A DNA stretch of 64,000 bases from Candidatus Nanohaloarchaea archaeon. Its GTDB lineage: Archaea; Nanohalarchaeota; Nanosalinia; Nanosalinales; Nanosalinaceae. The notes below the pieces were generated by a model. The model was not told where the DNA came from and searched no databases. It saw nothing but the letters and a program-made list of their open reading frames with translations. Location of the stretch: NCBI GenBank assembly GCA_013343275.1, contig CP046106.1:800001-864000 (forward strand), in the 5' to 3' direction. The translations under genes were made by a program, and so were the position numbers. Below, piece after piece: positions 1 to 61,400 of this stretch. Position 1 is the first letter of the stretch. Each line of letters opens with the position of its first letter.

Positions 1-1
1 A

Positions 2-256
2 GCCAAGCAGAAGAAGGTAAGAGCTGGCAAAGGAAAGAACAGAGGCCGTAAATACGTTACACGAGCAGGCCCTCTAGTAGTGGTTGCAGAAGATGAAGGA
101 ATCAAGGACGCAGGAAGCAATCTTGCAGGAGTAGAGGTCTCACTGGTCGATCAGCTTAACGCTGAGAAACTTGCTCCAGGAGCAGAGCCAGGAAGACTTA
201 CAGTCTGGAGCGAAAAAGCACTGGAAAAACTTGACGAAGAGGAACTTTTCCAATAA
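2..256 (+). CDS. rpl4: 50S ribosomal protein L4, C-terminal part (truncated by window)
   Basis: Own translation: ...KVRAGKGKNRGRKY...LNAEKLAPGAEPGRLTVWSE..., the archaeal L4 C-terminus; lies directly upstream of L23. Confidence 0.93.
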   Translation, partial: AKQKKVRAGKGKNRGRKYVTRAGPLVVVAEDEGIKDAGSNLAGVEVSLVDQLNAEKLAPGAEPGRLTVWSEKALEKLDEEELFQ

Positions 257-272
257 AAGGTGACAAAGAAAA

Positions 273-542
273 ATGGAAGATGACAAAGCTTGGGAAATAA
301 TCGAGAACCCTCACATGACAGAACAGGCAATGGACATGATTGACGAAGAGAACAAGCTTGTTCTCATGGTAGATCTCGACGCAAACAAGAACCAGGTAGA
401 AGACGCAGTACAGACACTATTTGATGTTGAAGTAACCAAAGTAAATACCAACATCACACCGCAGGCCCAGAAAAAGGCCTACGTAAAACTCTCACAGAGC
501 GACTCCGCGATGGATGTCGCAACCGAACTAGGTATGATGTAA
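273..542 (+). CDS. rpl23: 50S ribosomal protein L23
   Basis: PHMTEQAM..ENKLVLMVD..ANK..KKAYVKL; operon position. Confidence 0.96.
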   Translation: MEDDKAWEIIENPHMTEQAMDMIDEENKLVLMVDLDANKNQVEDAVQTLFDVEVTKVNTNITPQAQKKAYVKLSQSDSAMDVATELGMM

Positions 543-549
543 GAATGAA

Positions 550-595
550 GAAAATCGCAGATTTTCAGAGTAGCAGAAAACACAGAGGTGTTTTC
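550..595 (+). repeat. Double-hairpin intergenic element, copy 1 (rpl23-rpl2)
   Basis: GAAAATC-gca-GATTTTC, linker agagtagca, GAAAACAC-agag-GTGTTTTC; SD GAGGTG at 585-590 inside hairpin 2; mini-ORF 545-601. Confidence 0.85.
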
Positions 596-600
596 AACTA

Positions 601-1302
601 ATGGGAAGTCCACTAAGACAACAACGAAGAGGAAAAGGATCTCCGAACTACCAGTCTAACTCTCATAAATCCAAGGGAGATGTAGAGACAAAAAGAGCAG
701 AAACTCAGGGAACAGTAGTAGATCTAGTACACGACCCAGGAAGAACATCCCCTGTAGCAGTAGTAGAGTTCGAGGACGGAGAAGAAAGAAACATCCTAGC
801 GCCAGAAGGCCTAGCAGTAGGCGACACAATCGAGCTAGGAGTATCCGCAGAAGTCAAACCAGGAAACACACTTCCTGTAGGAGAGATCCCAGAAGGAGTA
901 CCAATCCACAATCTAGAACTCCAGCCGAACGACGGCGGCCAGATCGCCAGAAGCAGCGGAACATACGCATTCGTCGTAACACACGAAAAAGATGGGGTAA
1001 GAGTAAAGCTTCCAAGCGGAGACTTCAAAAAGTTGAATACTAGCTGCCGTGCAACAATTGGAAAAGTAGCAGGCGGCGGAAGAAAGGAGAAACCGTTCGT
1101 AAAGGCCGGAAACAAGTCCAAGGCTATGAAGGCCAGAGGCAAGGCCTATCCGAAGGTCTCCGGCGTAGCAATGAACGCAGTAGACCACCCATTCGGTGGA
1201 TCCGCAAAACCAGGAAAAGCAAAGACAGTTTCCAAGCACGCCTCACCAGGGCGTAAAGTCGGAAACATCGGCGCAAGCCGCAGCGGAAAGAAGAAAGAGT
1301 AA
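601..1302 (+). CDS. rpl2: 50S ribosomal protein L2
   Basis: QRRGKG, HDPGR, GVAMNAVDHPFGG motifs. Confidence 0.98.
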   Translation: MGSPLRQQRRGKGSPNYQSNSHKSKGDVETKRAETQGTVVDLVHDPGRTSPVAVVEFEDGEERNILAPEGLAVGDTIELGVSAEVKPGNTLPVGEIPEGVPIHNLELQPNDGGQIARSSGTYAFVVTHEKDGVRVKLPSGDFKKLNTSCRATIGKVAGGGRKEKPFVKAGNKSKAMKARGKAYPKVSGVAMNAVDHPFGGSAKPGKAKTVSKHASPGRKVGNIGASRSGKKKE

Positions 1303-1313
1303 GGTGATCAATT

Positions 1314-1694
1314 ATGGCAGACGAAGACTTTACATTCAGAGGAAAAACAATGGACGAACTCCGAGACATGGATCTCGAAGAGTTCGCCGACCTCCTCGAT
1401 GCAAGAGGCCGAAGAAAGATTCAGAGAGGCCTCAGAGAGGACGAGGAGAAGATCCTCGAAGATCTCGAGGAAAAAGACACAGTCAAAACCCACAGAAGAG
1501 GGATGATAGTAGTACCGAAGATGGTAGGAAACACCCTTCAGGTCTACAACGGACAGAGGTTCATCGAAGTAGAAGTCGAGGCACAGATGCTCGGCCACTA
1601 CCTCGGAGAATTCGCAAGAACCCGAAAAGAAGTCGAACACAGCGCACCAGGACTTGGTGCAACACGTTCGTCCAAACACATCCCGCTCAAGTGA
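1314..1694 (+). CDS. rps19: 30S ribosomal protein S19
   Basis: FTFRGK, KTHRR, YNG, MLGHYLGEF, GATRSSK. Confidence 0.97.
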   Translation: MADEDFTFRGKTMDELRDMDLEEFADLLDARGRRKIQRGLREDEEKILEDLEEKDTVKTHRRGMIVVPKMVGNTLQVYNGQRFIEVEVEAQMLGHYLGEFARTRKEVEHSAPGLGATRSSKHIPLK

Positions 1695-1702
1695 TTTAAC
1701 CT

Positions 1703-2113
1703 ATGGAACTTGACGCACACCAAGCATTTGCACAGGGCCGAAACATGCCTGTATCATGGAAGGACTGCACAGAAGTCGGACGCTTCATCAAAGGCGACTC
1801 TGTAGAGAAAGCAGAGAGAAAGCTCGAGAAAGTAATCGAGAAAGAACTCGCAGTACCCTACACAAAGTTCGACAGCGATGTCGGCCACAGAAGCGGACAT
1901 GGAGACTCCGGAAGATACCCGGAGAAAGCATCCAAGGAAATCCTGGAAGTTCTCAGATCTGCAGCATCAAATGCAGAGCACGAAGGCCTCAACCCTGGTG
2001 CACTTGAAGTACAGAACGTCATCACCAACAAAGGCCAAGAAATGAGAACTCCCGGAAGACATCCTGGAGAGACAAAAGCAGCACACGTAAAAATAATTGT
2101 AGGAGAGCGATAA
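1703..2113 (+). CDS. rpl22: 50S ribosomal protein L22
   Basis: VPY..GHR..GRYPEKA..NAE motifs; operon position. Confidence 0.96.
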   Translation: MELDAHQAFAQGRNMPVSWKDCTEVGRFIKGDSVEKAERKLEKVIEKELAVPYTKFDSDVGHRSGHGDSGRYPEKASKEILEVLRSAASNAEHEGLNPGALEVQNVITNKGQEMRTPGRHPGETKAAHVKIIVGER

Positions 2114-2120
2114 TATGACC

Positions 2121-2166
2121 GAAAATCAGAGATTTTCTGGGCATGCAAAAGACCGAGGTGGTCTTT
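2121..2166 (+). repeat. Double-hairpin intergenic element, copy 2 (rpl22-rps3)
   Basis: GAAAATC-aga-GATTTTC, linker ending gca, AAAGACC-gaggt-GGTCTTT; mini-ORF 2115-2168. Confidence 0.8.
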
Positions 2167-2168
2167 GA

Positions 2169-3233
2169 ATGCAAGAGAAAAAATTCATTCAGAAAGGAGC
2201 ACGTAAGGTAAGACTTCACGAGTTCCTTGAAGAAGAACTTGAAGGCGCAGGATACAGTCACGCAGACCTGGTAAGAACACCTACATCAGCAAAAATCGTG
2301 ATCTACGCACAGAGACCGGGCCTCGTCATCGGAAGAGGGGGTTCCAGGATCAAGGAACTCACAGCAGATCTCGAAGAAGAATTCGACTTCGATAACCCAC
2401 AGATCGAGGTTAACGAGATCGAAGAACCTGATGCAGATGCAGAAGTAGTAGCAAAGAGCATCGCAAACTGGCTTGAGAAAGGAGGCCACGCCAAACGTGT
2501 AGGATACACCTACATCAGAAGAATGAAGGAAGCAGGAGTAACAGGAGCAGAAGTAGAGATCACAGGAAAGCTCTCCGGAAACAGAGGCCGTACAGAGAAG
2601 TTCTCATTCGGATACGTAAAGAGATGCGGAAACACCTCTAAGGAAAACGTGGATAAAGGATACGAACTGGCCCGTACAAAGCCAGGAGCAATCGGAGTCA
2701 AAGTACGCATGATGAAGGAAATGCCGGACTTCATGCACAGAGACGTCGATGTCAGCGAGGAAATCCTCCACGAATCAGAAGTCTCAGAAGAATCACAGAT
2801 CAAGTCCGACAGAATCCAGCAGGTACTGGAAGAAGCAGAAAGCATGACTTCCTCCGAACTTGAGAGAGCAATCGAAGAGAAGGCAGAGACAATAGAGACA
2901 GGAGACATCTCCAAAGAAGAAGTCAGAGAGGCCTTCGAAGCAAGAGAGGAATCAGAGCCAGAAGAAGTCGAAGCCGAAGAACCAGAAGAGTCTGAATCTG
3001 AAGAAGCATCTTCTGAGGAGCAATCTTCCGAAGAGGAAGAGGACACAGAAGACTCATCTGAACAGGAAGAGACTGAAGAGACGGATGTAGAGGAAATTGT
3101 CTCAGGAACCATCAGCGACGCAAAGGACGCAATCTCAGAAATGGAGGATCCTGACTACGGCGCAATTCTACAGGCCGAGAAAGCCAACAAAAACCGAACA
3201 ACCTTTATTGACTGGCTTGAATCCCAGCAATAA
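2169..3233 (+). CDS. rps3: 30S ribosomal protein S3 with long acidic C-terminal extension
   Basis: KH motif RPGLVIGRGG, ITGKL, GAIGVKVR; about 165 extra C-terminal residues. Confidence 0.96.
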   Translation: MQEKKFIQKGARKVRLHEFLEEELEGAGYSHADLVRTPTSAKIVIYAQRPGLVIGRGGSRIKELTADLEEEFDFDNPQIEVNEIEEPDADAEVVAKSIANWLEKGGHAKRVGYTYIRRMKEAGVTGAEVEITGKLSGNRGRTEKFSFGYVKRCGNTSKENVDKGYELARTKPGAIGVKVRMMKEMPDFMHRDVDVSEEILHESEVSEESQIKSDRIQQVLEEAESMTSSELERAIEEKAETIETGDISKEEVREAFEAREESEPEEVEAEEPEESESEEASSEEQSSEEEEDTEDSSEQEETEETDVEEIVSGTISDAKDAISEMEDPDYGAILQAEKANKNRTTFIDWLESQQ

Positions 3234-3262
3234 ATAAAAGGAACTAACAGAAGTGATTAACC

Positions 3263-3460
3263 GTGTCAGAACTTTCAATCTCTGAACTCAGAGAAAAAGA
3301 CGCCTCCGAACTCAAACAGGACCTTACAGATCTACAGAAGGAACTTGTACAGGAAAGAGGCCAGATAGAAGTCGGAGGATTTGCCGACAACCCTGGCCGA
3401 CTCGGAGAAATGAAGAAAACCATCGCACGTATCAAAACAGTTCTCAACGAACGCCAATAA
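3263..3460 (+). CDS. rpl29: 50S ribosomal protein L29
   Basis: ELR..NPGR..KKTIARIKTV. Confidence 0.95.
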   Translation: MSELSISELREKDASELKQDLTDLQKELVQERGQIEVGGFADNPGRLGEMKKTIARIKTVLNERQ

Positions 3461-3469
3461 AGAATTATA

Positions 3470-3778
3470 ATGTCAGATCTCAATCCCAACAGCGGACTAC
3501 CCGACGAACTCGACGTCACCGACCAACTAGCAAGATCAGAACAGAAAATCACTGTAAAGATCGACACAAGAAGCTTCGGCAAAGAAGTCACAGTAGTCGA
3601 AGGCCTTGGAGAAGAAATCAACCTCGATGACCTATCCTCCAAACTCAAGTCCAAACTTGCATGCGGAGGAACAGTCAAAGACGGCCACATCGAACTCCAG
3701 GGCGACCACACACGTCGAATCGAAGACGTCCTCGCAGACCAGGGATTCGACAAAGAAAACATCGAAATCCAGAGATAA
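3470..3778 (+). CDS. Translation initiation factor aIF1 (SUI1 family)
   Basis: FGKEVTVVEG, LKSKLACGGTVKDGHIELQGDH. Confidence 0.95.
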   Translation: MSDLNPNSGLPDELDVTDQLARSEQKITVKIDTRSFGKEVTVVEGLGEEINLDDLSSKLKSKLACGGTVKDGHIELQGDHTRRIEDVLADQGFDKENIEIQR

Positions 3779-3872
3779 AATCATCCTCTGGGCCTGTTCA
3801 CATCTCCCTTTTTTACTTTCTACCTAGAAACCAACAGTTTCAAGTTGATACCTGCATAAAATCTAACTGGCT

Positions 3873-4616
3873 ATGAAGGCAACAATTCTGGGTTCAGGAG
3901 ACCCTCTAGGAATGCCGGTACCTATGTGTAAATGCAAGTACTGTAGAAAAGGCCCTGAAAGATTGAGAGCAGGCCTTAAGGTGGAGACAGAGGATTCAAC
4001 AGTTGTTTTCGATATAGGCCCTGATCTCCGTCAACAGCTTATCTCAACTGATACTTCGGATGTAGATGCCTTTTTCGCAACTCACGCTCATTTCGATCAC
4101 TTTGGAGGCCTTCCTGAATTAAGTAATCTTGACGTATTTGCTGATGCCGAAATCTCTATCTATGGTAGTGAAGAGGTTCAGAACTACATTGAAGATGTTT
4201 ACAGCTGGATAGATATCGATTACACAGTCTTCGAAGGCAGTACAGAGATCGGAGATCTAACTGTAGAGGCCTTCCCGGTAGAGCACTCGGAGTTCCTTCC
4301 AATGCAGGGTTACGCCGTTGAAAGCTGGGGCAAGAAGGTTGTGTACATACCTGATCTCAAATCCCTTCCGGAAACAGATGTCTACAGGGATGCAGACGTT
4401 CTATTTATTGATGGAATGTACCTGTTCGAGAAACACATGGAAGATGACGAGGATCACGCAGCGAAGGAGGAATTAAAGGCCGAGATAGAGAAATGCAACG
4501 CAGAAAAAGTAGTGCTCTTAGGGATGTCGGAACACTTCAACGAAATGACTGTGGAAGAAGAGAAAGAAAAAACCAGGTACGAGATAGGGAAAGACTTCAA
4601 AGAATACTCTCTCTAG
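3873..4616 (+). CDS. MBL-fold metallo-hydrolase, PhnP-like
   Basis: ILGSG..G.P...CxCxxC N-terminus, THAHFDH metal motif. Confidence 0.88.
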   Translation: MKATILGSGDPLGMPVPMCKCKYCRKGPERLRAGLKVETEDSTVVFDIGPDLRQQLISTDTSDVDAFFATHAHFDHFGGLPELSNLDVFADAEISIYGSEEVQNYIEDVYSWIDIDYTVFEGSTEIGDLTVEAFPVEHSEFLPMQGYAVESWGKKVVYIPDLKSLPETDVYRDADVLFIDGMYLFEKHMEDDEDHAAKEELKAEIEKCNAEKVVLLGMSEHFNEMTVEEEKEKTRYEIGKDFKEYSL

Positions 4617-4625
4617 TTAACTAAT

Positions 4626-4901
4626 ATGCCAATAACACCAGAAAACCTCCCGAAACACGAACTCATAGGCCTCCATGTAGAGGTAGTTGAGTCAACAGAT
4701 GAGACTCTCGAAGGCCTTGAGGGAGAGGTTATGGATGAAACCAAGTCCATGCTGAGAATCGACGGGAAACAGATGCAGAAAAAGAACTGCACGTTTCTCT
4801 TCGAGATACCTTCAGGAGAGGAGGTAGAGGTAGATGGGGAGCTTATTGCGAAAAGGCCTGAAGAGCGTACAGGCATGAAACTGCCGGAAAAATACCGGTA
4901 A
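4626..4901 (+). CDS. rnp1: Ribonuclease P protein component 1 (Rpp29/Pop4)
   Basis: HELIGL.VEV, G.V.DET, RPEER; usual position before S17. Confidence 0.93.
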   Translation: MPITPENLPKHELIGLHVEVVESTDETLEGLEGEVMDETKSMLRIDGKQMQKKNCTFLFEIPSGEEVEVDGELIAKRPEERTGMKLPEKYR

Positions 4902-4974
4902 AGGCCTTTCTTTGAGTTCCACTTACTACTTCAAAGTACCCTTTTAAAGTTTGTCTTTGAATGTGTTCTTACGA

Positions 4975-5123
4975 ACCTCAAAACTTGATTGAGGTCTTGA
5001 TAACCGCTGGAAGTCGAGTCTTTGGCTCGATACTTTCGGTGGTCTGCTTGGAAAACCCACGTTTGTGAGTGTTTTTGCTGCAGACTCTCCGATTTGCTAT
5101 TTCTGGCGGTTGTAGAACCTCCA
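4975..5123 (+). ncRNA. Putative structured RNA or 5' leader of the rps17 transcript
   Basis: Four predicted hairpins; the helix at 5003-5043 has G-U pairs that work only on the + strand; TATA-like TTTTAAA at 4942-4948. Confidence 0.5.
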
Positions 5124-5170
5124 ATCAGATCAATAAACAAACAATTAGACAATCGAAAGGTGAACAAGGC

Positions 5171-5461
5171 TTGACTGAAACAAATGAATCCAGCGAATAC
5201 CCAATCAGGGGCGGAGTATTTACAGGAACAGTAGAATCCACGAAAATGCAGAAATCCGCAACTGTACGATGGGAACACACACAGGAAATTCCGAAATACG
5301 AGAGAAAAGAGAGAAGAAACACAAAGATCACAGTCCACGTCCCTGAAGACATGGAGATCGAGGAAGGCGACACAGTAAAGGTCGGAGAGACCAAGCCAAT
5401 CTCAAAAACCAAGAGCCATGTAGTAATGGAAAAAATAACCGACGAAGAAAACGAGGAGTAG
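5171..5461 (+). CDS. rps17: 30S ribosomal protein S17
   Basis: RG.VF.G.V.S.KM, PKYER.ERR, GETKPISKTKS; TTG start at 5171 after SD AGGTGA (track start 5069 is too long). Confidence 0.95.
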   Translation: MTETNESSEYPIRGGVFTGTVESTKMQKSATVRWEHTQEIPKYERKERRNTKITVHVPEDMEIEEGDTVKVGETKPISKTKSHVVMEKITDEENEE

Positions 5462-5468
5462 ATTCTAA

Positions 5469-5867
5469 ATGAAGCCACTAGGAGCAAGCATTACAAGAGG
5501 CCTGGACCAGGGCGCAGAACTAACATGCGCAGACAACTCCGGAGCTAAAAAACTGAAGATCATCGGAGTTAAAAGCCAGAAAGGCCGAAGGTCAAGAAGA
5601 AACTCCGCAGGAATCGCAGACAAAGTAGTAGTAAGAGTCCTCAAAGGAGACGAGGAAACAAAACACGAAATATTCGAAGCAGTAGTTGTCAGACAGAGAC
5701 AGGAATTCGAAAGACCAGAAGGAACACGAGTAAAATTCGAAGACAACGCAGCAGTACTAGTAGAAGAAAACGGGCTTCCAAAAGGTTCAGTAACCCGAGG
5801 CCCAATTGCAAAAGAAGTAGTACAGCGATACTCCCCGATCGGGAAGATCGCATCAAAGGTGGTGTAA
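5469..5867 (+). CDS. rpl14: 50S ribosomal protein L14
   Basis: CADNSGAK, FEDNAAV, GPIAKE. Confidence 0.97.
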   Translation: MKPLGASITRGLDQGAELTCADNSGAKKLKIIGVKSQKGRRSRRNSAGIADKVVVRVLKGDEETKHEIFEAVVVRQRQEFERPEGTRVKFEDNAAVLVEENGLPKGSVTRGPIAKEVVQRYSPIGKIASKVV

Positions 5868-5871
5868 CGAT

Positions 5872-5914
5872 GAAAATCGCAGATTTTCGGAGTAGCAGAA
5901 AACAAGGTGTTTTC
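5872..5914 (+). repeat. Double-hairpin intergenic element, copy 3 (rpl14-rpl24)
   Basis: GAAAATC-gca-GATTTTC, ggagtagca, GAAAACA-agg-TGTTTTC; mini-ORF 5870-5920. Confidence 0.85.
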
Positions 5915-5919
5915 AACTA

Positions 5920-6558
5920 ATGAGCAACAACGAATGGAGCAGAAGCTGGAACTCAAGTAAGAACCCGACGAAGCAGAGAAAATACCGTAGAAACGCACCA
6001 CAGCATGTAAAAGATAAACTAGTGTCAGCAAATCTGGCCTCAGAACTTAGAGAAGAGCTAGGAACCAGAAACCTCAATCTCAAAGTAGGAGACAGAGTAG
6101 AGATCATGAGAGGCGACGACAAAGGAACTTCCGGAGTAATCAGCAGCATCGACAGAGAGAACGGAACAGTAACAGTAAACGGCGTAGAGAACGAACGTAC
6201 AGATGGCACATCCAGAGAAAAAACACTACAGCCATCCAACCTCCAGATCCAGGCACTCAACCTCGAAAACGTCTCAAGAATCGAAGCCTACGATGTAGAA
6301 GATACAGAAGCAATCGAAGTAGATGAAGAAGAACTAGAGGAACTTGAGGAAGAAGAGGAAGAAAATGCAATGATGCAGCAAATGCAGGGCGGAGGAGAAG
6401 CCGCAGACATCAGTGAAGAAGAACTCGAAGAGATTGAAGAAGAAATAGAAGAAGAGGAAACTGAAGCTGAAGAAGAGAAAGACACCGAATCCGAAGAGGA
6501 TTCAGACGAAACCACAGAAGAATCCGATGAAGAATCGGAAGAGAAAGGTGAGCAATAA
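5920..6558 (+). CDS. rpl24: 50S ribosomal protein L24 with acidic tail
   Basis: S..P.KQRK...NAP, KOW motif GDRVEIMRGD.KG, PSNL. Confidence 0.95.
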   Translation: MSNNEWSRSWNSSKNPTKQRKYRRNAPQHVKDKLVSANLASELREELGTRNLNLKVGDRVEIMRGDDKGTSGVISSIDRENGTVTVNGVENERTDGTSREKTLQPSNLQIQALNLENVSRIEAYDVEDTEAIEVDEEELEELEEEEEENAMMQQMQGGGEAADISEEELEEIEEEIEEEETEAEEEKDTESEEDSDETTEESDEESEEKGEQ

Positions 6559-7215
6559 ATGGGATTCCAAAAACGACTATCAGCACCAAAACACTATCCT
6601 ATCGACAGGAAAAACAACTCTTACGTAGTAGAACTCAAAGGTTCAAGAAGCAAAGACCAGGCTATTCCAACAGCACTATTCCTTAGAGATGTGCTTGGAT
6701 ACGCAGACACAGTAAGCGAAGCCAAGAAAATAGTAAACGATGGCAAAGTCCAGAGAAACGGCGACACAGTAAGAGATATCAAAGAAGGCCTAGGAGTACT
6801 CGACGTAGTCGAAGTAGACGGCCTCGAAGAGACATACAGAATAGTAAAAGACAGCAAAGGCCTCAAATTCATCGCAGTAGAAGATGACAAGGTCCTTGCC
6901 AAGGTAACAGGAAAGAGAGCAGAAGGAGATGAATACGTTTACAGCCTCCACAACGGCGAGAACTACAGAACCAAAGATGAGTTCGAAGTTCAGAGCTCAC
7001 TGATCTTCAACGGAGGAGTCAAGGAAGTACCTCTTGAAGAAGGCGCAGAGGTTCTAATTACAGGAGGCCAGCACGCAGGAGAAACTGCAGAGCTAGTAGA
7101 AGTTAACAGAAGTGGCCTCAAAACCTCAACAGCAACAGTTGAAGAAGCCGACAGACAGTTCGATACACGGCTTGAAAACATTGTAGCAGTTGAAGACGTC
7201 AAGGTGACAGAATAA
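6559..7215 (+). CDS. rps4e: 30S ribosomal protein S4e
   Basis: KRLSAP, LRDVLGYA, C-terminal KOW ITGGQHAG. Confidence 0.95.
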   Translation: MGFQKRLSAPKHYPIDRKNNSYVVELKGSRSKDQAIPTALFLRDVLGYADTVSEAKKIVNDGKVQRNGDTVRDIKEGLGVLDVVEVDGLEETYRIVKDSKGLKFIAVEDDKVLAKVTGKRAEGDEYVYSLHNGENYRTKDEFEVQSSLIFNGGVKEVPLEEGAEVLITGGQHAGETAELVEVNRSGLKTSTATVEEADRQFDTRLENIVAVEDVKVTE

Positions 7216-7727
7216 TGACTAACGAGATGAAGCAGATAGAGATTGCAAAAATAACAGTAAATACCTCGGCTGGAGAGGTAGGAGACGAAGTAGAGAAAGG
7301 ATTTACACTTCTCGAAAAGCTTACCGGGAAGCAGCCGGTCAGAACATCCTCGAAAGACGCATCCAAAACGTTCGGACTGAGAGAAGGCCTGAACATTGGA
7401 GCAAAAGTAACACTTCGAGGAGAAGAAGCAAGAGAGTTCCTGGAAAAAGTACTACCTGCGGCAGACAACCAGATCTCTGCAGAATCATTCGACGGAAACG
7501 GAAACTTCGCATTCGGAATTGGAGAATACATCGATGTACCAGGAATGGACTATGATGCCGATATCGGCATGAAAGGATTCGAGGTAGTGGTCAACCTGGA
7601 GAGACCAGGATACAGAGTAAAGCGGAGAGATCACAAACCGGATGAAATCGGCAAAGACCACAAAGTCGATGACGAAGAAGCCAAGGACTTCGTCGAAGAA
7701 GAACTTGGAGCAGAGGTGGTAGAATAA
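7215..7727 (+). CDS. rpl5: 50S ribosomal protein L5
   Basis: IGAKVTLRG, FDGNGNFAFGI.EYID.PG..YD..IG. Confidence 0.97.
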   Translation: MTNEMKQIEIAKITVNTSAGEVGDEVEKGFTLLEKLTGKQPVRTSSKDASKTFGLREGLNIGAKVTLRGEEAREFLEKVLPAADNQISAESFDGNGNFAFGIGEYIDVPGMDYDADIGMKGFEVVVNLERPGYRVKRRDHKPDEIGKDHKVDDEEAKDFVEEELGAEVVE

Positions 7728-7733
7728 TGATTA

Positions 7734-7780
7734 GAAATTCGGAGAATTTCATGATCACGCAGAAAACACGAGGTGTTTTC
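7734..7780 (+). repeat. Double-hairpin intergenic element, copy 4 (rpl5-rps14)
   Basis: GAAATTC-gga-GAATTTC (compensatory change), linker ending gca, GAAAACAC-gag-GTGTTTTC; mini-ORF 7727-7786. Confidence 0.85.
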
Positions 7781-7782
7781 GA

Positions 7783-8007
7783 GTGAGCTACGAAGCAGTA
7801 CTGGAACAGATCAAACACAAGAAAGGAAAAAGACAGAAATTCGAGAAACACAACGCTCCAAAGGAAAGAGACTACGGAAAATCCAAGAAAGAATGCAGAA
7901 GATGCGGAAGAACAGGTAGAGGAGTCATCAGCAAATACGATCTCAACTACTGCAGACAGTGCTTCCGTGAAATCGCAGAAGAACTCGGATTCGAACAGCT
8001 CAACTAG
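7783..8007 (+). CDS. rps14: 30S ribosomal protein S14 (Zn-binding)
   Basis: CRRCG...[17 protein letters not shown]; GTG start. Confidence 0.95.
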
Positions 8008-8019
8008 GTGACAAAGAAA

Positions 8020-8409
8020 ATGCAGCAAGATACATTCAGCGACGCAATGTCCTCCATCAACAACGCAGTAGATGCAGGCAACGAATACGCAACAATCAGT
8101 CCAACAAGCAGCCTGGTCAAGAACCTACTGCTTAAGCTACAGGAACTGGAATACATCGGCGTTTTCGAATATGTAGAAGACGGCCAGGGAGGCAAATTCC
8201 GAGTAGAAGTCAAAAACCAGGTAAACGAATGCCAGTCCGTAAAACCACGGTTCTCCGTACAGAACGAAGAATACGAGAAATGGGCCAAGAGATACCTACC
8301 GGCTCAAGGATTCGGAGAGCTACTGGTAACCACAAGCCACGGCCTCATGACACACTACGAGGCCCGTGAAGAAGGAATCGGCGGAAAACTACTAGGTTAC
8401 GTCTACTGA
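8020..8409 (+). CDS. rps8: 30S ribosomal protein S8
   Basis: KPRFSV, YLPA..FG.L.VTTS.G.MTH.EA...IGG.LL.YVY; ATG at 8020 after SD AGGTGA. Confidence 0.96.
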   Translation: MQQDTFSDAMSSINNAVDAGNEYATISPTSSLVKNLLLKLQELEYIGVFEYVEDGQGGKFRVEVKNQVNECQSVKPRFSVQNEEYEKWAKRYLPAQGFGELLVTTSHGLMTHYEAREEGIGGKLLGYVY

Positions 8410-8424
8410 AGGTGAACAAGAAAA

Positions 8425-8958
8425 ATGACAGAACTAACATACGAGCTACCAGAAGGATTCGACGTAGAATACACAGATGACGGAGTCCTAAAGGTAGAAG
8501 GAAACGGAGAAGAAACAGAGAAGCAAATCCAGCACTCGCTGGTAGAAGTAGAAGTAGACGGAGATACAGTAAAGTTCACGCCACTAAGAGAGAAGAAAGA
8601 TATAGTCAGCGTGGCAAAGACATTTAGATCCCACCTAGAAAACATGGTAGAAGGCCTGCAGAACTCGCATGTCTACCATCTAAAAGGAGTATACGCACAC
8701 TTCCCGATGACAATCAAGAAGGAAGGCGATGAAGTAGTAGTCGAGAACTTCATGGGAGAAAGACACCCAAGAAGAGCAGACATCATGGAAGGCGTAGACG
8801 TAAACGTAGACGGCGACGAAATCACAGTAAAAGGCCCTAACAAGGATAAGGTAAGTCAGACAGCAGCACGGATCGAACAGCTTTCCCGCAAAGGAAACCG
8901 CGATCCACGTACTTTCCAGGACGGAATCTACATAACAGAGGTGACTCGAAGTGAGTAA
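8425..8958 (+). CDS. rpl6: 50S ribosomal protein L6
   Basis: YAHFPM, NFMGE, DPRTFQDGIYI. Confidence 0.97.
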   Translation: MTELTYELPEGFDVEYTDDGVLKVEGNGEETEKQIQHSLVEVEVDGDTVKFTPLREKKDIVSVAKTFRSHLENMVEGLQNSHVYHLKGVYAHFPMTIKKEGDEVVVENFMGERHPRRADIMEGVDVNVDGDEITVKGPNKDKVSQTAARIEQLSRKGNRDPRTFQDGIYITEVTRSE

Positions 8959-9286
8959 AGACTTCAAAAGACAGGAAACACACAAGAGAAACAGAGTAAA
9001 GAGCTCATGGAGAAAGCCTATCGGCCACCACTCCAATGCACGGCTCAAGAAGAAAAGCGCCCAGAAAATGCCAAAGGCAGGATTCAGAACGCCTAAGGAA
9101 GATAGAGGCAAACACCCTTCAGGATACGAAGAAGTACTTGTACACAATACTGACGATCTTGAGGAAGTAGATTCAGAGACCGAAGCTGCACGGATCGGCT
9201 CCACAGTAGGAGGCCGCAAAAGAGAACAGATAATCGAGAAAGCAGACGATCTTGAAATCAAAGTACTGAACAGAGGTGAAGAATAA
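8951..9286 (+). CDS. rpl32e: 50S ribosomal protein L32e
   Basis: FKRQE, WRKP.G, HPSG.EEVLVHN, VGGRKR. Confidence 0.96.
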   Translation: MSKDFKRQETHKRNRVKSSWRKPIGHHSNARLKKKSAQKMPKAGFRTPKEDRGKHPSGYEEVLVHNTDDLEEVDSETEAARIGSTVGGRKREQIIEKADDLEIKVLNRGEE

Positions 9287-9726
9287 TGGATCTAAAAAAC
9301 CAGAGAAGAATGGCAGCAGACATCATGGATGTCGGAGAAGACCGCGTATGGATCGATCCTGACAACCAGGAGAAAGTAGATGAAGCAATTACACGTCAGG
9401 ATATCAGAAACCTGATCGAAGGAGACACCATTCAGAAGAAAGAAAAGAAAGGAACAAGCAAAGGCCGAGCACGAGAGAAAAAGAAGCAGAAGAAGAAAGG
9501 ACGCAGGAAAGGCCAGGGCAGCAGACAGGGAAAGAAAGGAGCCCGTAAATCCGACAAGAAGAAATGGATGGAAAATATTCGAGCAATCCGATCAGAGCTC
9601 AAAGAAATGAGAGATAACGAAGAAATTACACAGGAACAGTACAGAGACCTGTACGACAGAGCAAAGGGAGGATTCTTTAGAGACACAAAACACCTCAAAA
9701 ACTACGTAGAGAACAAAATGGAGTGA
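9286..9726 (+). CDS. rpl19e: 50S ribosomal protein L19e
   Basis: RVWIDP, AITRQDIR, G.GSR.GKKGAR, AKGG.F. Confidence 0.97.
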   Translation: MDLKNQRRMAADIMDVGEDRVWIDPDNQEKVDEAITRQDIRNLIEGDTIQKKEKKGTSKGRAREKKKQKKKGRRKGQGSRQGKKGARKSDKKKWMENIRAIRSELKEMRDNEEITQEQYRDLYDRAKGGFFRDTKHLKNYVENKME

Positions 9727-9731
9727 GTACA

Positions 9732-10241
9732 ATGGCAGAGACATCAAATTACAAAGTACCTTTCAGAAGGAGAAGAGAACAGAAAACAGACTATGAACAA
9801 CGGCTGAAGCTGGTTAAATCTGGAAAACCACGAGCAGTAGTAAGAACAAGCAACCAGCACACAAGATCACACCTTGCACACTACAAGCGAGAAGGTGACG
9901 TAAACGAGGCCCAGACACTCAGCAAAGAACTAGAAGAATACGGCTGGGAACATAACACAGGCAACCTGCCAGCAGCATACCTGACAGGATACCTGACAGC
10001 CAAAAAAGCAGACTCAGAAGAAGCAATCCTCGACATAGGTCTCAGGGAACAGAAAACAGGAGGCCGAATCTTCGCAGCAGTAAAAGGAATGAGAGACGCA
10101 GGCCTTGAAGTACCTGCAGGAGAAGAAGTATTCCCTGCTGAAGGAAGAATTAGAGGAGAACACATCGAAGAAATGAAAGAAGACTCAAACATTACAGAAA
10201 ACTTTGAAGAAGTCAAAGAAAACATCGAAGGTGAATTTTAA
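9732..10241 (+). CDS. rpl18: 50S ribosomal protein L18
   Basis: PFRRRRE.KTDY..R, NLPAAYLTG, ILDIG. Confidence 0.97.
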   Translation: MAETSNYKVPFRRRREQKTDYEQRLKLVKSGKPRAVVRTSNQHTRSHLAHYKREGDVNEAQTLSKELEEYGWEHNTGNLPAAYLTGYLTAKKADSEEAILDIGLREQKTGGRIFAAVKGMRDAGLEVPAGEEVFPAEGRIRGEHIEEMKEDSNITENFEEVKENIEGEF

Positions 10242-10912
10242 TGGCAGAACAGGAAATAGAAGAAGAAATCTGGACTCCAAAGACAAAACTCGGTAGAGCA
10301 GTGGCCAACGGCCAGATCACAACTATTGAACAGGCTCTAGACCATGAAAGACCGATCATGGAGCCAGAGATCGTCGACCAGCTGACAGATCTGGATGAAG
10401 AAGTAATGCTTATCGGAGGAACTCCGGGAAAGGGAGGCGGAAAAAGAAGAACAGTCTCCAAGAGAACAGCAAGAATGCACAAGTCAGGCGCAAGGTACAG
10501 TTCCAACGCAATGACAGTACTAGGAAACCGTAACGGAGTAATAGGACTAGGCGTAGGAGAATCAGACGATACACGAGCGGCAATCGACGACGCAAATAGA
10601 AACGCCAAGCTTAACCTGATCAAAGTACCTAGAGGAAACGGATCATGGGAGGACAAAGGAGATCACAAGGCCTCCATCCCATTCCAGGTAGAAGGAAAGT
10701 CAGGATCTGTAACAGTAGAGCTTAAACCTGCTCCAAGAGGAACAGGCCTAGTCGCATCCGACGACGTCAAGAAAGTAATGGAGCTCGCAGGAATCGACAA
10801 CATCTGGGTCAAATCCAGAGGAACAACAAGAACACGAGAGAACCTGATCAGAGCAACATTCAACGCTCTGGAGAAACTCTCCGAATATCAGCATGATGGT
10901 GACAACCAATGA
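10241..10912 (+). CDS. rps5: 30S ribosomal protein S5
   Basis: W.PKTKLGR, GSWE, PAPRGTGLV, N...ATFNAL. Confidence 0.97.
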   Translation: MAEQEIEEEIWTPKTKLGRAVANGQITTIEQALDHERPIMEPEIVDQLTDLDEEVMLIGGTPGKGGGKRRTVSKRTARMHKSGARYSSNAMTVLGNRNGVIGLGVGESDDTRAAIDDANRNAKLNLIKVPRGNGSWEDKGDHKASIPFQVEGKSGSVTVELKPAPRGTGLVASDDVKKVMELAGIDNIWVKSRGTTRTRENLIRATFNALEKLSEYQHDGDNQ

Positions 10913-10913
10913 T

Positions 10914-10956
10914 GAAAATCGCAGATTTTCGTGATGCAGAAAACACAGGTGTTTTC
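10914..10956 (+). repeat. Double-hairpin intergenic element, copy 5 (rps5-rpl30)
   Basis: GAAAATC-gca-GATTTTC, gtgatgca, GAAAACA-cagg-TGTTTTC; mini-ORF 10909-10962. Confidence 0.85.
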
Positions 10957-10958
10957 GA

Positions 10959-11306
10959 ATGATTGCAGCAATCAGAGTAAGAGGAGACGTCGACGCAAGC
11001 GACAAAGCAAGTGCAACACTTCAGAACATGAACCTTGAAAGGAGAAATCAGTGCGTAGTATACGAGGACACTGATTCGATTCGAGGAATGCTGAACAAGG
11101 CCAAAGACTACATCACATATGGCCAGGTATCTGATGAAGCGCTTGAACTGCTTGAAGAAAGGAAAGGATCAGAAATTGAATCTGGCGATGTAATTAATCT
11201 AACACCTCCAAGCAGAGGTTATAAGGATACGAAGAGAAATGTAAATCAGGGCGGAAGCCTTGGTGAAAGAGAAAACCTAGATAACCTGATCGAGAAAATG
11301 GTGTAA
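10959..11306 (+). CDS. rpl30: 50S ribosomal protein L30
   Basis: AAIRVRG, GML.K.KDYITYG, L.PP..G, GG.LG. Confidence 0.94.
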   Translation: MIAAIRVRGDVDASDKASATLQNMNLERRNQCVVYEDTDSIRGMLNKAKDYITYGQVSDEALELLEERKGSEIESGDVINLTPPSRGYKDTKRNVNQGGSLGERENLDNLIEKMV

Positions 11307-11339
11307 AGGCCTTTTCTCAAATTTTAAGGTGAACTATCA

Positions 11340-11765
11340 ATGACAAAGAGAAGATCCAAGAAGAATAAGTCCGGAAGCAACGGTTACGGAAGCTCCAAGA
11401 AGAACCGTGGAGCAGGAAGCCGTGGTGGAAGAGGTAAAGCAGGAACAGGAAAGAAAGCAAATCACGAAAAAATGACTGAAGATGGAGTCCATGAGCTAGG
11501 AGAAGAAGGATTTACTCCACACGGCTCCACAGAACAGAACGGAATCAACCTCAAGGACATCGATCAGCGGATCGAAGAGTTCGTCGAACAGGGAGTAGCA
11601 GAAGAAACCGATGATGGCTACATCTTCCACGCCGACGAAGCAGGATACGACAAAGTCCTTGGAAGCGGAAAGCTCTTCAAGGACATCGAAGTCCACGCGG
11701 AAGATTTCTCAGACTCCGCCAAAAGAAAGATTGAAGAATCAGGACAGGAAGCCGTAGAGGAATAA
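11340..11765 (+). CDS. rpl15: 50S ribosomal protein L15
   Basis: RGAGSRGGRGKAG, GYDKVLGSG, FS..A..KIE. Confidence 0.95.
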   Translation: MTKRRSKKNKSGSNGYGSSKKNRGAGSRGGRGKAGTGKKANHEKMTEDGVHELGEEGFTPHGSTEQNGINLKDIDQRIEEFVEQGVAEETDDGYIFHADEAGYDKVLGSGKLFKDIEVHAEDFSDSAKRKIEESGQEAVEE

Positions 11766-11769
11766 CAAA

Positions 11770-13164
11770 ATGTCTTGGATTGTCCAGGCCGCAGGCTATC
11801 TGCCAAGCGTTAAAGAACCCGAAAAAGAACAGTCGCTGAAGCAGATGCTGACCTGGACAGGTATAGTCCTCGTCCTGTACTTCATCCTAGGCTCCATCAA
11901 CCTGTACGGAGCAAACGCAGGCGCAGTAGAACAGGCCCTGCAGACACTACAGACATACCAGACCATTCTAGGAGCACAGATCGGCTCCATAATTACACTC
12001 GGAATCGGCCCAATCGTAACATCCTCCATCATACTGCAGATGCTGGTAGGATCAGAACTACTACCATGGAACACCAATAATGAAGAAGGAAAACAGAAAT
12101 TCCAGGCAGCACAGAAACTAATGGCCTACGCACTGACAATAGTACAGGCCTTCGGATACGTACTTAGCGGAACATTCGGAAACGTAGCAGGAGACCCACA
12201 GCTCATACTACTCCTCGCAGGCCAGATCACGCTCGGAGGATGGCTGATCATCATGATGGACGACCTCGTCCAGAAATGGGGATTCGGATCAGGAACAGGC
12301 CTATTCATCGCAGCAGGAGTATCCAGACAGGTATACATCACAATACTCTCCCCACTGGTAACACCTGAAAACCAGCTATTCTGGACAACAGGAGGAAACC
12401 CGGTCGGAAAACTATTCGTATTCGCACAGACACAGGACTTCACAGCACTAATCCCAATACTCTCAACAATCCTCGTATTCTCCGCAGTAGTATACATGCA
12501 GTCAATGCGTGTAGAAATACCGCTGACATTCGGAAACGTAAGAGGATTTGGACAGAAATGGCCTCTCAAATTCCTATACACATCCAACATGCCGGTAATC
12601 CTGATCGCAGCACTAGTATCAAACATACAGATCGTAGGAACAACACTGGCAGGTCCAGACGGCCAGAGCATCCTCGGAAGCTTCAGCGCACAGGGACAGG
12701 CCCAAGCAGGCCTCGTATACTGGCTTCAAGCACCTGTACAGGTATTCCAGAGCCTGATCACGTCAGGCCTACAGGGAGTAACACCGATGGATATATTCCA
12801 TATATTCTTCTACATCTCAGTGTACGCCTTCGGATCAGTACTGTTCAGCATCTTCTGGATGAAGACCAGCGGACAGGACGCCGATTCAGTTGCGGAACAG
12901 ATACAGGACACAGGTATGAAAGTACCAGGATTCCGAAAAGACAAACGAGTGATCAAGAAAGTACTCAACCGTTACATCCCAGGCCTCACAGTCCTTTCAG
13001 GATTCTCGGTAGGCCTGCTCGCAGCACTCGCAAACATGACACAGGCTGCAGGAGGAGGAACAGGAATCCTCTTGACAGTCATGATCCTCTACCAGCTATA
13101 CGAACAACTGGCACAGAAACACATGGAAGAACTTCACCCGGCAATGAAGGACTTCATCTCCTGA
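11770..13164 (+). CDS. secY: Preprotein translocase subunit SecY
   Basis: LGIGPIVTSSIILQ, KWGFGSG..LFI, PLKFLYTSNMP, PGFR, GTGILL.V. Confidence 0.98.
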   Translation: MSWIVQAAGYLPSVKEPEKEQSLKQMLTWTGIVLVLYFILGSINLYGANAGAVEQALQTLQTYQTILGAQIGSIITLGIGPIVTSSIILQMLVGSELLPWNTNNEEGKQKFQAAQKLMAYALTIVQAFGYVLSGTFGNVAGDPQLILLLAGQITLGGWLIIMMDDLVQKWGFGSGTGLFIAAGVSRQVYITILSPLVTPENQLFWTTGGNPVGKLFVFAQTQDFTALIPILSTILVFSAVVYMQSMRVEIPLTFGNVRGFGQKWPLKFLYTSNMPVILIAALVSNIQIVGTTLAGPDGQSILGSFSAQGQAQAGLVYWLQAPVQVFQSLITSGLQGVTPMDIFHIFFYISVYAFGSVLFSIFWMKTSGQDADSVAEQIQDTGMKVPGFRKDKRVIKKVLNRYIPGLTVLSGFSVGLLAALANMTQAAGGGTGILLTVMILYQLYEQLAQKHMEELHPAMKDFIS

Positions 13165-61241: not shown

Positions 61242-61313
61242 GCCCTCATGGTCTAGTGGAAAGACGGCACCTTGCGGAGGTGCAGATCCAGGGTTCAAAT
61301 CCCTGTGAGGGCG
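61242..61313 (+). tRNA. tRNA-Arg(GCG)
   Basis: Acceptor GCCCTCA/TGAGGGC, anticodon arm GCACC-ttGCGga-GGTGC, TTCAAAT loop; TTTTAAA about 30 nt upstream. Confidence 0.95.
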
Positions 61314-61400
61314 TCTTGTTACGCTCTTGACGAAACTTCAAGAGAAGTTTCTGTGAACGCACAAAATCTCTGATTTTGGAGTGCCATGCAATCAGCCATT

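Follow-up and report, generated by a model that had tools for sequence, protein, structure and literature searches.

Termination-reinitiation has been described for gene pairs that overlap directly by their stop and start codons (Huber et al. 2019, PMC6728339; Huber et al. 2023, PMC10666635), with overlaps of -4 and -1 nt and the Shine-Dalgarno (SD) motif of the second gene placed in the reading frame of the first. According to the later report, -4 and -1 are the commonest overlaps and are enriched among subunits of complexes, and a distance of about 20 nt almost abolishes termination-reinitiation (PMC10666635). Coupling by RNA unfolding is represented by genes VII and IX of phage f1, for which PMC12548453 describes a hairpin that buries the ribosome-binding site within the preceding translated frame. 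Among dispersed hairpin repeats, repetitive extragenic palindromic (REP) sequences are recognized by a palindrome of which one end bears a conserved tetranucleotide, GTAG or CGTC (PMC3733652). The element described in this report is a repeated unit of two hairpins, about 45-50 nt long, found at five stop/start junctions of the ribosomal protein (r-protein) cluster in a 64,000-nt stretch of DNA (hereafter the window; positions 800,001 to 864,000 of contig CP046106.1, assembly GCA_013343275.1) from a Candidatus Nanohaloarchaea archaeon. Each unit is crossed by a short open reading frame (ORF), the bridge ORF, that ends on or beside the downstream gene's start codon. Leader-peptide attenuators of the ermC and cat type provide a further point of reference and are arranged in the order SD1, short leader ORF, hairpins, sequestered SD2, and gene.

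The bridge ORF resembles the termination-reinitiation pairs in its -4 and -1 overlaps and in the SD within the upstream frame, and its 3' end, like the 5' end of about half of the copies, shares their geometry. The described pairs are direct overlaps between two genes, whereas here two junctions stand in series around an ORF that is not a gene and lies on a repeated, structured insert. As in the account of f1 genes VII and IX, a hairpin burying the ribosome-binding site is located within the preceding frame, but the unfolding would be performed by a dedicated mini-ORF instead of the upstream gene, and the module is repeated over many loci and genomes. The unit also follows the ermC/cat order, with an SD-like motif before 62 of 70 bridge ORFs collected from the phylum and with hairpin 2 lying over the second SD. 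It differs in that the bridge ORF passes across the SD2 hairpin and has its stop on the start codon, and in that a stalling signal or inducer is not evident; the alternative 2:3 pairing (UUUUC with GAAAA), judged by eye, amounts to about five A-U pairs only. A literature search of main texts found neither such an element for this lineage nor any repeat family that combines a stop-on-start bridging ORF with a locked SD. On the evidence given below, the element is probably an inserted repeat that locks the start of the downstream gene, and translation of the bridge ORF would relay ribosomes across it by termination-reinitiation or by unfolding.

The order of parts within the unit is an ATG, zero to two codons, hairpin 1 (GAAAATC-N3-GATTTTC), a spacer of 9-11 nt ending in GCA, hairpin 2 (GAAAACAC...GTGTTTTC or compensated variants, e.g. 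AAAGACC/GGTCTTT), 2-5 nt, and the downstream start codon, with the stop codon of the mini-ORF falling on or beside that start at the end of each unit. Both hairpins share the consensus GAAAAYC...GRTTTTC, so that the unit is a tandem of a single hairpin type. The window contains six occurrences of the hairpin 1 motif where 0.35 would be expected, a number that was not reached by any of 100 shuffled sequences. Using RNAfold, the two-hairpin fold was obtained for all five window copies (-11.8 to -20.5 kcal/mol, z -1.65 to -4.44). In an alignment of 61 distinct copies, which was fitted to a covariance model and so favours the structure, 97.2% of the cells are paired and compensatory changes are present in 15 of 16 pairs; none of 500 shuffles equalled this result, and in slid controls the pairing dropped to 26-62%. 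Compensated pairs in hairpin 1 were already present in a separate MAFFT alignment of 14 copies. Hairpin 2 was set out of register by MAFFT in these 14 copies, and the covariance model was built from four copies that were in register.

The 3' end of the 16S rRNA is GGATCACCTCCA, on the basis of which AGGTG(A) was identified as the SD. Hairpin 2 contains AGGTG at a spacing of about 10 nt before the start codon, as in nearly all genes of the r-protein cluster, its pairs covary (9/9), and in each of the five window copies it falls inside the bridge ORF. An earlier reading of the window, made from the sequence without database searches (the sequence-only reading), had proposed that the hairpin occludes the SD; covariation, predicted folds, and the anti-SD sequence support such a sequestration of the SD by hairpin 2. 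In several copies the fold is extended by pairing of a spacer triplet with the start codon, and the triplet tracks the start: CAT was found with ATG in nine copies, CAC with GTG in seven, CAC with ATG in two, and CAT with GTG in none, the other listed copies having other triplets. Kink-turn (K-turn), C/D-box, and H/ACA motifs were considered by eye for the ATGA...GA ends and were dropped, as the 3' ends CTAA, CGAA, and TGAA lose the GA pair. At the gathering score, Rfam returned two tRNAs only in the window, and at E values up to 5 none of its matches overlapped the elements.

All five mini-ORFs listed by the sequence-only reading were recovered when window positions 1-12000 were read and translated (Table 1); the flanking genes were named using Pfam. 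The same reading had placed each mini-ORF start within 3 nt of the upstream stop codon, which is correct for the five window copies and holds generally for only 34 of 70 well-formed copies (13 at -4, 13 at -1, and 8 at 0 to 3; the whole range is -4 to +3). Another 29 begin 4-35 nt later behind an ordinary SD, and seven have no upstream ORF within 45 nt.

Table 1. Positions of the tandem-hairpin units in the window and at other places of the same genome (positions refer to the window unless marked as genome).
Feature	Position	Strand	Details
Copy 1 (L23/L2), bridge mini-ORF	545-601	+	18 codons, peptide MKKIADFQSSRKHRGVFN; L23 stop 540-542, ATG 2 nt later; TAA 599-601 overlaps L2 ATG 601-603 (TAATG)
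Copy 1, hairpin 1	550-566	+	GAAAATC-GCA-GATTTTC
Copy 1, hairpin 2	576-595	+	GAAAACAC-AGAG-GTGTTTTC; loop and 3' arm hold SD GGTG 587-590
Copy 2 (L22/S3), bridge mini-ORF	2115-2168	+	17 codons, peptide MTENQRFSGHAKDRGGL; L22 stop 2111-2113, ATG 1 nt later; TGA 2166-2168 abuts S3 ATG 2169
Copy 2, hairpin 1	2121-2137	+	GAAAATC-AGA-GATTTTC
Copy 2, hairpin 2	2148-2166	+	AAAGACC-GAGGT-GGTCTTT, compensated variant; SD GGTG 2157-2160; spacer CAU 2142-2144, pairing with S3 AUG possible
Copy 3 (L14/L24), bridge mini-ORF	5870-5920	+	16 codons, peptide MKIADFRSSRKQGVFN; TAA 5918-5920 overlaps L24 ATG 5920 (TAATG)
Copy 3, hairpin 1	5872-5888	+	GAAAATC-GCA-GATTTTC
Copy 3, hairpin 2	5898-5914	+	GAAAACA-AGG-TGTTTTC; SD within loop and 3' arm
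Copy 4 (L5/S14), bridge mini-ORF	7727-7786	+	19 codons; ATG overlaps L5 TAA 7725-7727 (TAATG); TGA 7784-7786 overlaps S14 GTG 7783-7785 (GTGA)
Copy 4, hairpin 1	7734-7750	+	GAAATTC-GGA-GAATTTC, compensated pair change
Copy 4, hairpin 2	7762-7780	+	GAAAACAC-GAG-GTGTTTTC; spacer CAC 7756-7758 can pair with GTG start
Copy 5 (S5/L30), bridge mini-ORF	10909-10962	+	17 codons, peptide MMKIADFRDAENTGVFE; ATGA at both ends; S5 stop 10910-10912; L30 ATG 10959-10961; mini-ORF stop 10960-10962
Copy 5, hairpin 1	10914-10930	+	GAAAATC-GCA-GATTTTC
Copy 5, hairpin 2	10939-10956	+	GAAAACA-CAGG-TGTTTTC; SD within loop and 3' arm
Non-coding tandem-hairpin copy	61322-61385	+	no ATG, SD, or bridge ORF; 8 nt past tRNA-Arg(GCG) 61242-61313; distance to the 3' end of a convergent minus-strand gene 16 nt
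Copy within RNase P RNA	genome 875499-875549 (L027:1501-1551)	-	RNA matched by RF00373, 98.8 bits
Unit after tRNA-Gly(UCC)	genome about 542336-542500 (L015:37-201)		last 9-10 nt of the tRNA (GGACGCCGCA) repeated past the tandem unit; more hairpins beyond
Unit just 3' of a gene end or tRNA, or between convergent genes	genome 425218
Same class	genome 508105
Same class	genome 120876
Same class	genome 434610-434715 (L011)		four to five hairpins of the same type right after the stop of a 360-amino-acid gene; next gene 268 nt on

Conservation of the bridge ORF was assessed with 104 unique hits of the covariance model; at the 3' end of 80 of these hits a long downstream ORF begins. An ATG ORF ending between -4 and +3 nt from the downstream start was present in 70 of these 80 copies, compared with 2/80 and 2/80 for control frames in which the start was taken one or two bases later. 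Over the 80 copies, the ends lie at -4 (27 copies), -1 (20), and 0 (20), with two each at +1, +2, and +3. The distance from the bridge ATG to the downstream start takes 16 values from 41 to 108 nt in the 70 copies. For 22 copies it is 0 modulo 3, and in all of these TGA or TAA directly precedes the start; for 46 it is 2 modulo 3 (TAATG, ATGA, or GTGA), and for the remaining two 1 modulo 3, both with a 1-nt gap. In 68 of 70 the phase thus permits a stop that overlaps or abuts the start. This pattern of insertions and deletions is that of a translated frame, by which measure the bridge ORF is under selection. The proposal of the sequence-only reading that geometry is selected and not the peptide is supported, in that the stop stays on the start over 16 distances, composites and chains (see below) included, and the same bases are read in different frames (KIADF... 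or ENQRFS...) because the ATG lies 2, 5, 6, or 7 nt before hairpin 1, depending on the copy.

Junctions were also surveyed by length alone. The r-protein cluster was found in ten relatives in addition to the window genome, and every junction of the 11 genomes was tabulated. In 27 of 27 readable junctions of 45-162 nt there is a bridging ATG ORF of 14-46 codons, the end of which is placed between -4 and +4 nt relative to the downstream start; this count leaves out one masked junction, L23/L2 of genome G024 (106 nt, all N), a genome in which part of the S3 gene is masked too. Junctions of 24-37 nt (S3/L29 and L30/L15) have a free SD, and a bridging ATG was not visible in them. A scan with the flanks removed from the model returned 66 tandem hairpins. 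Thirty-two of these have no downstream gene start, many being the antisense of copies already counted, and among the 34 with a downstream start, 26 have a good bridge ORF, one has an ORF that ends 6 nt early, and seven have no ATG. By inspection, the seven comprise four antisense matches of counted copies, one TTG start, one longer bridging ORF, and one copy that fits none of these (L059, minus strand).

Larger composites keep the frame open. In genome G008, four-hairpin composites at Rpb7/Spt4 and Spt4/S24e have ORFs of 34 and 35 codons ending in TAATG and TGA-ATG, and S19/L22 has a 34-codon ORF ending in ATGA; in G024, L14/L24 has a 33-codon ORF, and three ORFs (12, 16, and 28 codons) follow one another stop-to-start up to the ATPase A gene (AtpA). 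In copies without a downstream gene the frame runs on for 26-33 codons. Decayed copies retain the ORF and lose hairpin pairing (L22/S3 in G021 and G012, L6/L32e in G008). Two other enlarged junctions were recorded in the same survey. L15/SecY of G008 (L079) has a 149-nt insert with different, GC-richer hairpins, flanked on both sides by the 21-nt direct junction repeat gaggaaTAAacacATGgcctc, and the first copy of the ATG opens a 46-codon ORF that closes at the second copy of the TAA; L2/S19 of G012 (L081) is a 319-nt junction with a 102-codon ORF and TAATG stop-on-start coupling to S19.

A motif scan combined with the covariance model gave 36 matches at E values up to 10 in the 915,886-bp genome from which the window is taken, some of these matches being the two strands of one place. 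About 25 copies were counted in the genome, approximately 16 at internal operon junctions and approximately nine elsewhere. The sequence-only reading had regarded the unit as an element of r-protein junctions, a description that proved too narrow. The junctions occupied in this genome, identified by Pfam, also include L44e/S27e, Rpb7-like/Spt4/S24e, S12/S7, Rrp4/Rrp41 of the exosome, 2-oxoacid dehydrogenase E1alpha/E1beta, and topoisomerase VI B/A, with a weak copy at ATPase A/B and two more copies that start with TTG or GTG. Copies outside junctions are found right after gene ends, between convergent genes, after tRNA-Arg, tRNA-Gly, and the RNA polymerase A'' gene, and within the RNase P RNA. 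Copies resembling the non-coding copy of the window, with the same spacer TGTGAACGCA, were seen in other families (L064 and L068); a tRNA was not found at those loci.

The search outside this genome was confined to the phylum, where matches at E values up to 1e-4 were obtained for 40 of 70 genomes. By family, these are 36 of 49 other genomes of the window genome's own family, and 2/10, 1/8, 0/1, and 0/1 in the others; in another run, at E values up to 0.01, 28 of 41 genomes have a match. Downstream genes in the relatives are enriched for r-proteins, translation factors, and aminoacyl-tRNA synthetases, 17 of the 20 sampled being translation-related, and the approximately 16 junction copies of the window genome precede eight r-protein genes. 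The base rate for this bias is a rough estimate based on approximately 280 closely spaced gene pairs in the window genome.

Presence of the unit at orthologous junctions is patchy. In the 11-genome tabulation, the L23/L2 junction is filled in 4/11, L22/S3 in 7/11, L14/L24 in 3/7, and L5/S14 in 2/6 genomes, and S5/L30 is filled in the window genome only, of five with a readable junction; outside the family, too, one genome has a copy at L22/S3. In G008 eight junctions are enlarged, mostly at places other than those of the window genome, and in G001, which is of the same genus (L2 proteins 94% identical), four of the five window junctions have spacings of 1, 4, 0, and -4 nt. The comparison of orthologous junctions suggested by the sequence-only reading thus had a divided outcome: where the element is present, its ATG and open frame are kept, but the element as a whole is usually absent, even from the sister species. 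When filled and empty sites were aligned, the old SD and ATG were seen to be unmoved and followed by the unit, then by a second SD and start, with the gene itself unchanged. The RNase P RNA of the window genome (416 nt) has a tandem unit where that of G001 (380 nt) has a 5-nt loop; the gene is 350 nt in G003 and 322 nt in G021.

Relationships among copies cut across loci. Within the window genome, the Rrp4/Rrp41 and E1alpha/E1beta copies (0.89 identical) are closest relatives at unrelated loci, and near-identical variants stand before non-orthologous genes in different genera, namely S14 in the window genome, ProRS in G003 (0.92), L1 in G024, and S7 in G007. In 17 of 26 copies the two ends have the same overlap type (permutation p = 0.009), and 5 of 58 copies, where 1.28 would be expected (P = 0.0075), are flanked by in-register repeats of 8-15 nt. 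The repeat of the tRNA-Gly(UCC) end past the tandem unit (Table 1) looks like a target duplication. Because of its patchy presence, together with the flanking stop/start duplications of 8-15 nt in some copies, the unit behaves as an insertion; the repeat appears to have inserted into stop/start junctions of coupled operons and to be, or to have been, mobile.

As a short non-coding hairpin repeat that is dispersed, patchy, tolerated in operons, and accompanied by some flanking duplications, the unit resembles REP sequences and MITEs (transposable elements of the miniature inverted-repeat kind). It differs from REP sequences and BIMEs (bacterial interspersed mosaic elements) in that no GTAG or CGTC head was present in the element alignments, of which the consensus is GAAAAYC...GRTTTTC, in its number of approximately 25 copies per genome, and in that no REP-associated tyrosine transposase (RAYT) was detected in the six genomes searched. 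The presence/absence polymorphism at orthologous sites expected of a MITE was found, but not a clear pair of terminal inverted repeats and target-site duplications; the outer arms (5' GAAAAYC and 3' GRTTTTC) are mutually inverted repeats and at the same time arms of two separate hairpins.

The following sequence of events is proposed for the favoured reading. On insertion, the original SD and start of the gene would remain upstream of the insert and open the bridge ORF of 14-46 codons. Hairpin 2 would lock the second SD (AGGTG), and often the new start codon too, the bridge ORF being the sole frame that reaches it. A ribosome could reach the old start by way of the old SD or, if the stop and start codons overlap, by reinitiating at the end of the upstream gene; while translating the bridge it would melt both hairpins and terminate -4, -1, or 0 nt from the new start, where it would reinitiate or leave the SD exposed for a new ribosome. 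Coupling that a gap of about 50 nt would otherwise abolish could thereby be relayed. A unit that lands in a stop/start overlap and duplicates it would create both ends of the relay together, with only the right length phase surviving; duplication of the overlap on insertion would explain ATGA...ATGA at S5/L30 and TAATG...TAATG at Rrp4/Rrp41. In this genome, the spacings of co-directional gene pairs peak at -4 (66 pairs), -1 (20), and 0 (15) according to crude gene calls. The sequence-only reading had further suggested that the relay enforces stoichiometry or acts as a regulatory checkpoint; as the element is mostly absent from orthologous junctions, the sister species included, a conserved checkpoint on stoichiometry is an unlikely reason for its presence, and an insertion whose harm the relay neutralizes fits the comparisons better.

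Several observations weigh against an inserted repeat made tolerable by a relay. No excess identity past the ATG was found across 63 copies, so that flanking duplication is not general. The Y1 (IS200/IS605-like) transposase family PF01797 gave no matches in the six genomes G000, G024, G019, G021, G008, and G007, and did match in control genomes; the partner search covered PF01797 and PF07282, and the latter gave two sub-threshold matches only. Ten of the 80 junction copies fail the strict definition of the bridge ORF, three having GTG or TTG (ending at -4), four ending at +6, +7, -8, and -10, and three having no start near hairpin 1. The covariance model with which the copies were collected contained the ATG and start flanks, a bias from which the junction-length census and the flank-free scan are free, and copies from relatives are non-independent samples. 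The stems are kept in sequence beyond pairing (in hairpin 1, G-C in 54, A-U in 51, A-U in 59, A-U in 53, U-A in 54, and C-G in 53 of 61 rows), which a merely tolerated insert would not need; a bound factor or a transposition signal could be the cause. Neutral insertion does not predict the bias of downstream genes towards translation. For stem conservation and this bias together, a bound factor, a preference of insertion for highly expressed genes, and a role of the hairpins at the transcript level are possible causes. A palindrome acting at the DNA level for a dimeric regulator was rejected as the principal explanation, as the stems change by compensatory pairs.

A regulatory checkpoint, in which hairpin 1 is bound in trans by a protein or RNA, with translation of the bridge being thereby either blocked or allowed and translation operons throttled jointly as a regulon, would account for the conserved stem sequence and for the enrichment of r-proteins, translation factors, and aminoacyl-tRNA synthetases downstream. 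The wide occurrence of the L22/S3 copy points the same way, as does hairpin 1 of copies 4 and 5, which in RNAfold extends to pair with the start region of its own bridge ORF. Such a checkpoint is nevertheless considered rather unlikely: even within the genus a given junction may be filled in one genome and empty in another, copies in RNase P RNA, after tRNAs, and after gene ends control no translation, decayed copies such as L22/S3 of G021 erode the hairpins and keep the bridge ORF, and no candidate binding factor was identified. The hairpins may alternatively be signals of the transcript (terminators or attenuators, or hairpins for 3'-end formation, processing, or stability), with the bridge ORF keeping ribosomes on the RNA against termination or polarity and reinitiation being secondary. 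This is consistent with the single and tandem units that closely follow gene ends, stand between convergent genes, or come after tRNAs, and with the run of four to five U residues that each unit provides on either strand; terminator hairpins can be suppressed by ribosomes, and archaeal polarity is attributed to FttA (PMC12548453). The exact stop of the bridge at -4, -1, or 0 and the pairing of SD and start in hairpin 2 would be left without explanation, and a consensus terminator and promoter scan did not flag the elements, although the scan is of bacterial type and therefore weak evidence. This account is doubtful to about the same degree as the checkpoint.

Functional micropeptides encoded by the mini-ORFs are highly improbable. 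The ORFs are short, preceded by an SD, begin with ATG, and are conserved across genomes, as would be expected of such genes, but the same nucleotides are read in different frames between copies, the lengths vary from 14 to 46 codons (26-33 codons where there is no downstream gene), and the conserved feature is nucleotide pairing. Least probable of all, and close to negligible, is chance, or a frame that arises passively from conserved sequence without being selected. Common founders of the copies could have passed on shared features that were not independently selected; against this stand the excess of the bridge frame over both control frames, the codon phase maintained over 16 length values, and the composites that remain open with two extra hairpins. 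The inserted-repeat reading can also be extended speculatively to a self-spreading 'coupling cassette' that brings its own locked SD and start, has its relay made by duplication of the overlap, and was domesticated through hairpin 1 as a lineage-specific post-transcriptional regulon gating r-protein, translation-factor, RNA polymerase, and exosome operons jointly, an extension regarded as no likelier than the checkpoint.

With an inserted repeat bridged by a translated frame, the dozens of independent length variants would constitute a natural experiment on translational coupling in archaea, in which a gap of about 50 nt between coupled genes is tolerated only if it is crossed by a frame whose end lies -4, -1, or 0 nt from the following start. 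The geometry of the bridge would then be the distance rule that was measured with Haloferax and E. coli reporters. The arrangement would also represent a new way for a small repeat to persist in essential operons without polar damage and, if hairpin 1 binds a factor, an undescribed global control of the translation apparatus in tiny symbiotic archaea. It is thus of interest both for archaeal translation and for the persistence of small repeats in compact genomes. In annotation, the junctions would pass as plain intergenic spacers and the mini-ORFs would be overlooked.

Two other features of the r-protein cluster were noted in the window. Approximately 270 nt without a long ORF (4902-5170) extend from an Rpp29-like gene to S17, and a similar gap is present in G001 (277 nt) and G021 (203 nt); Rfam returned nothing there, and the gap may contain a promoter or a new RNA. 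The S3 (354 amino acids, 2169-3233) and L24 (212 amino acids, 5920-6558) proteins have long, very acidic C-terminal tails past their Pfam domains.

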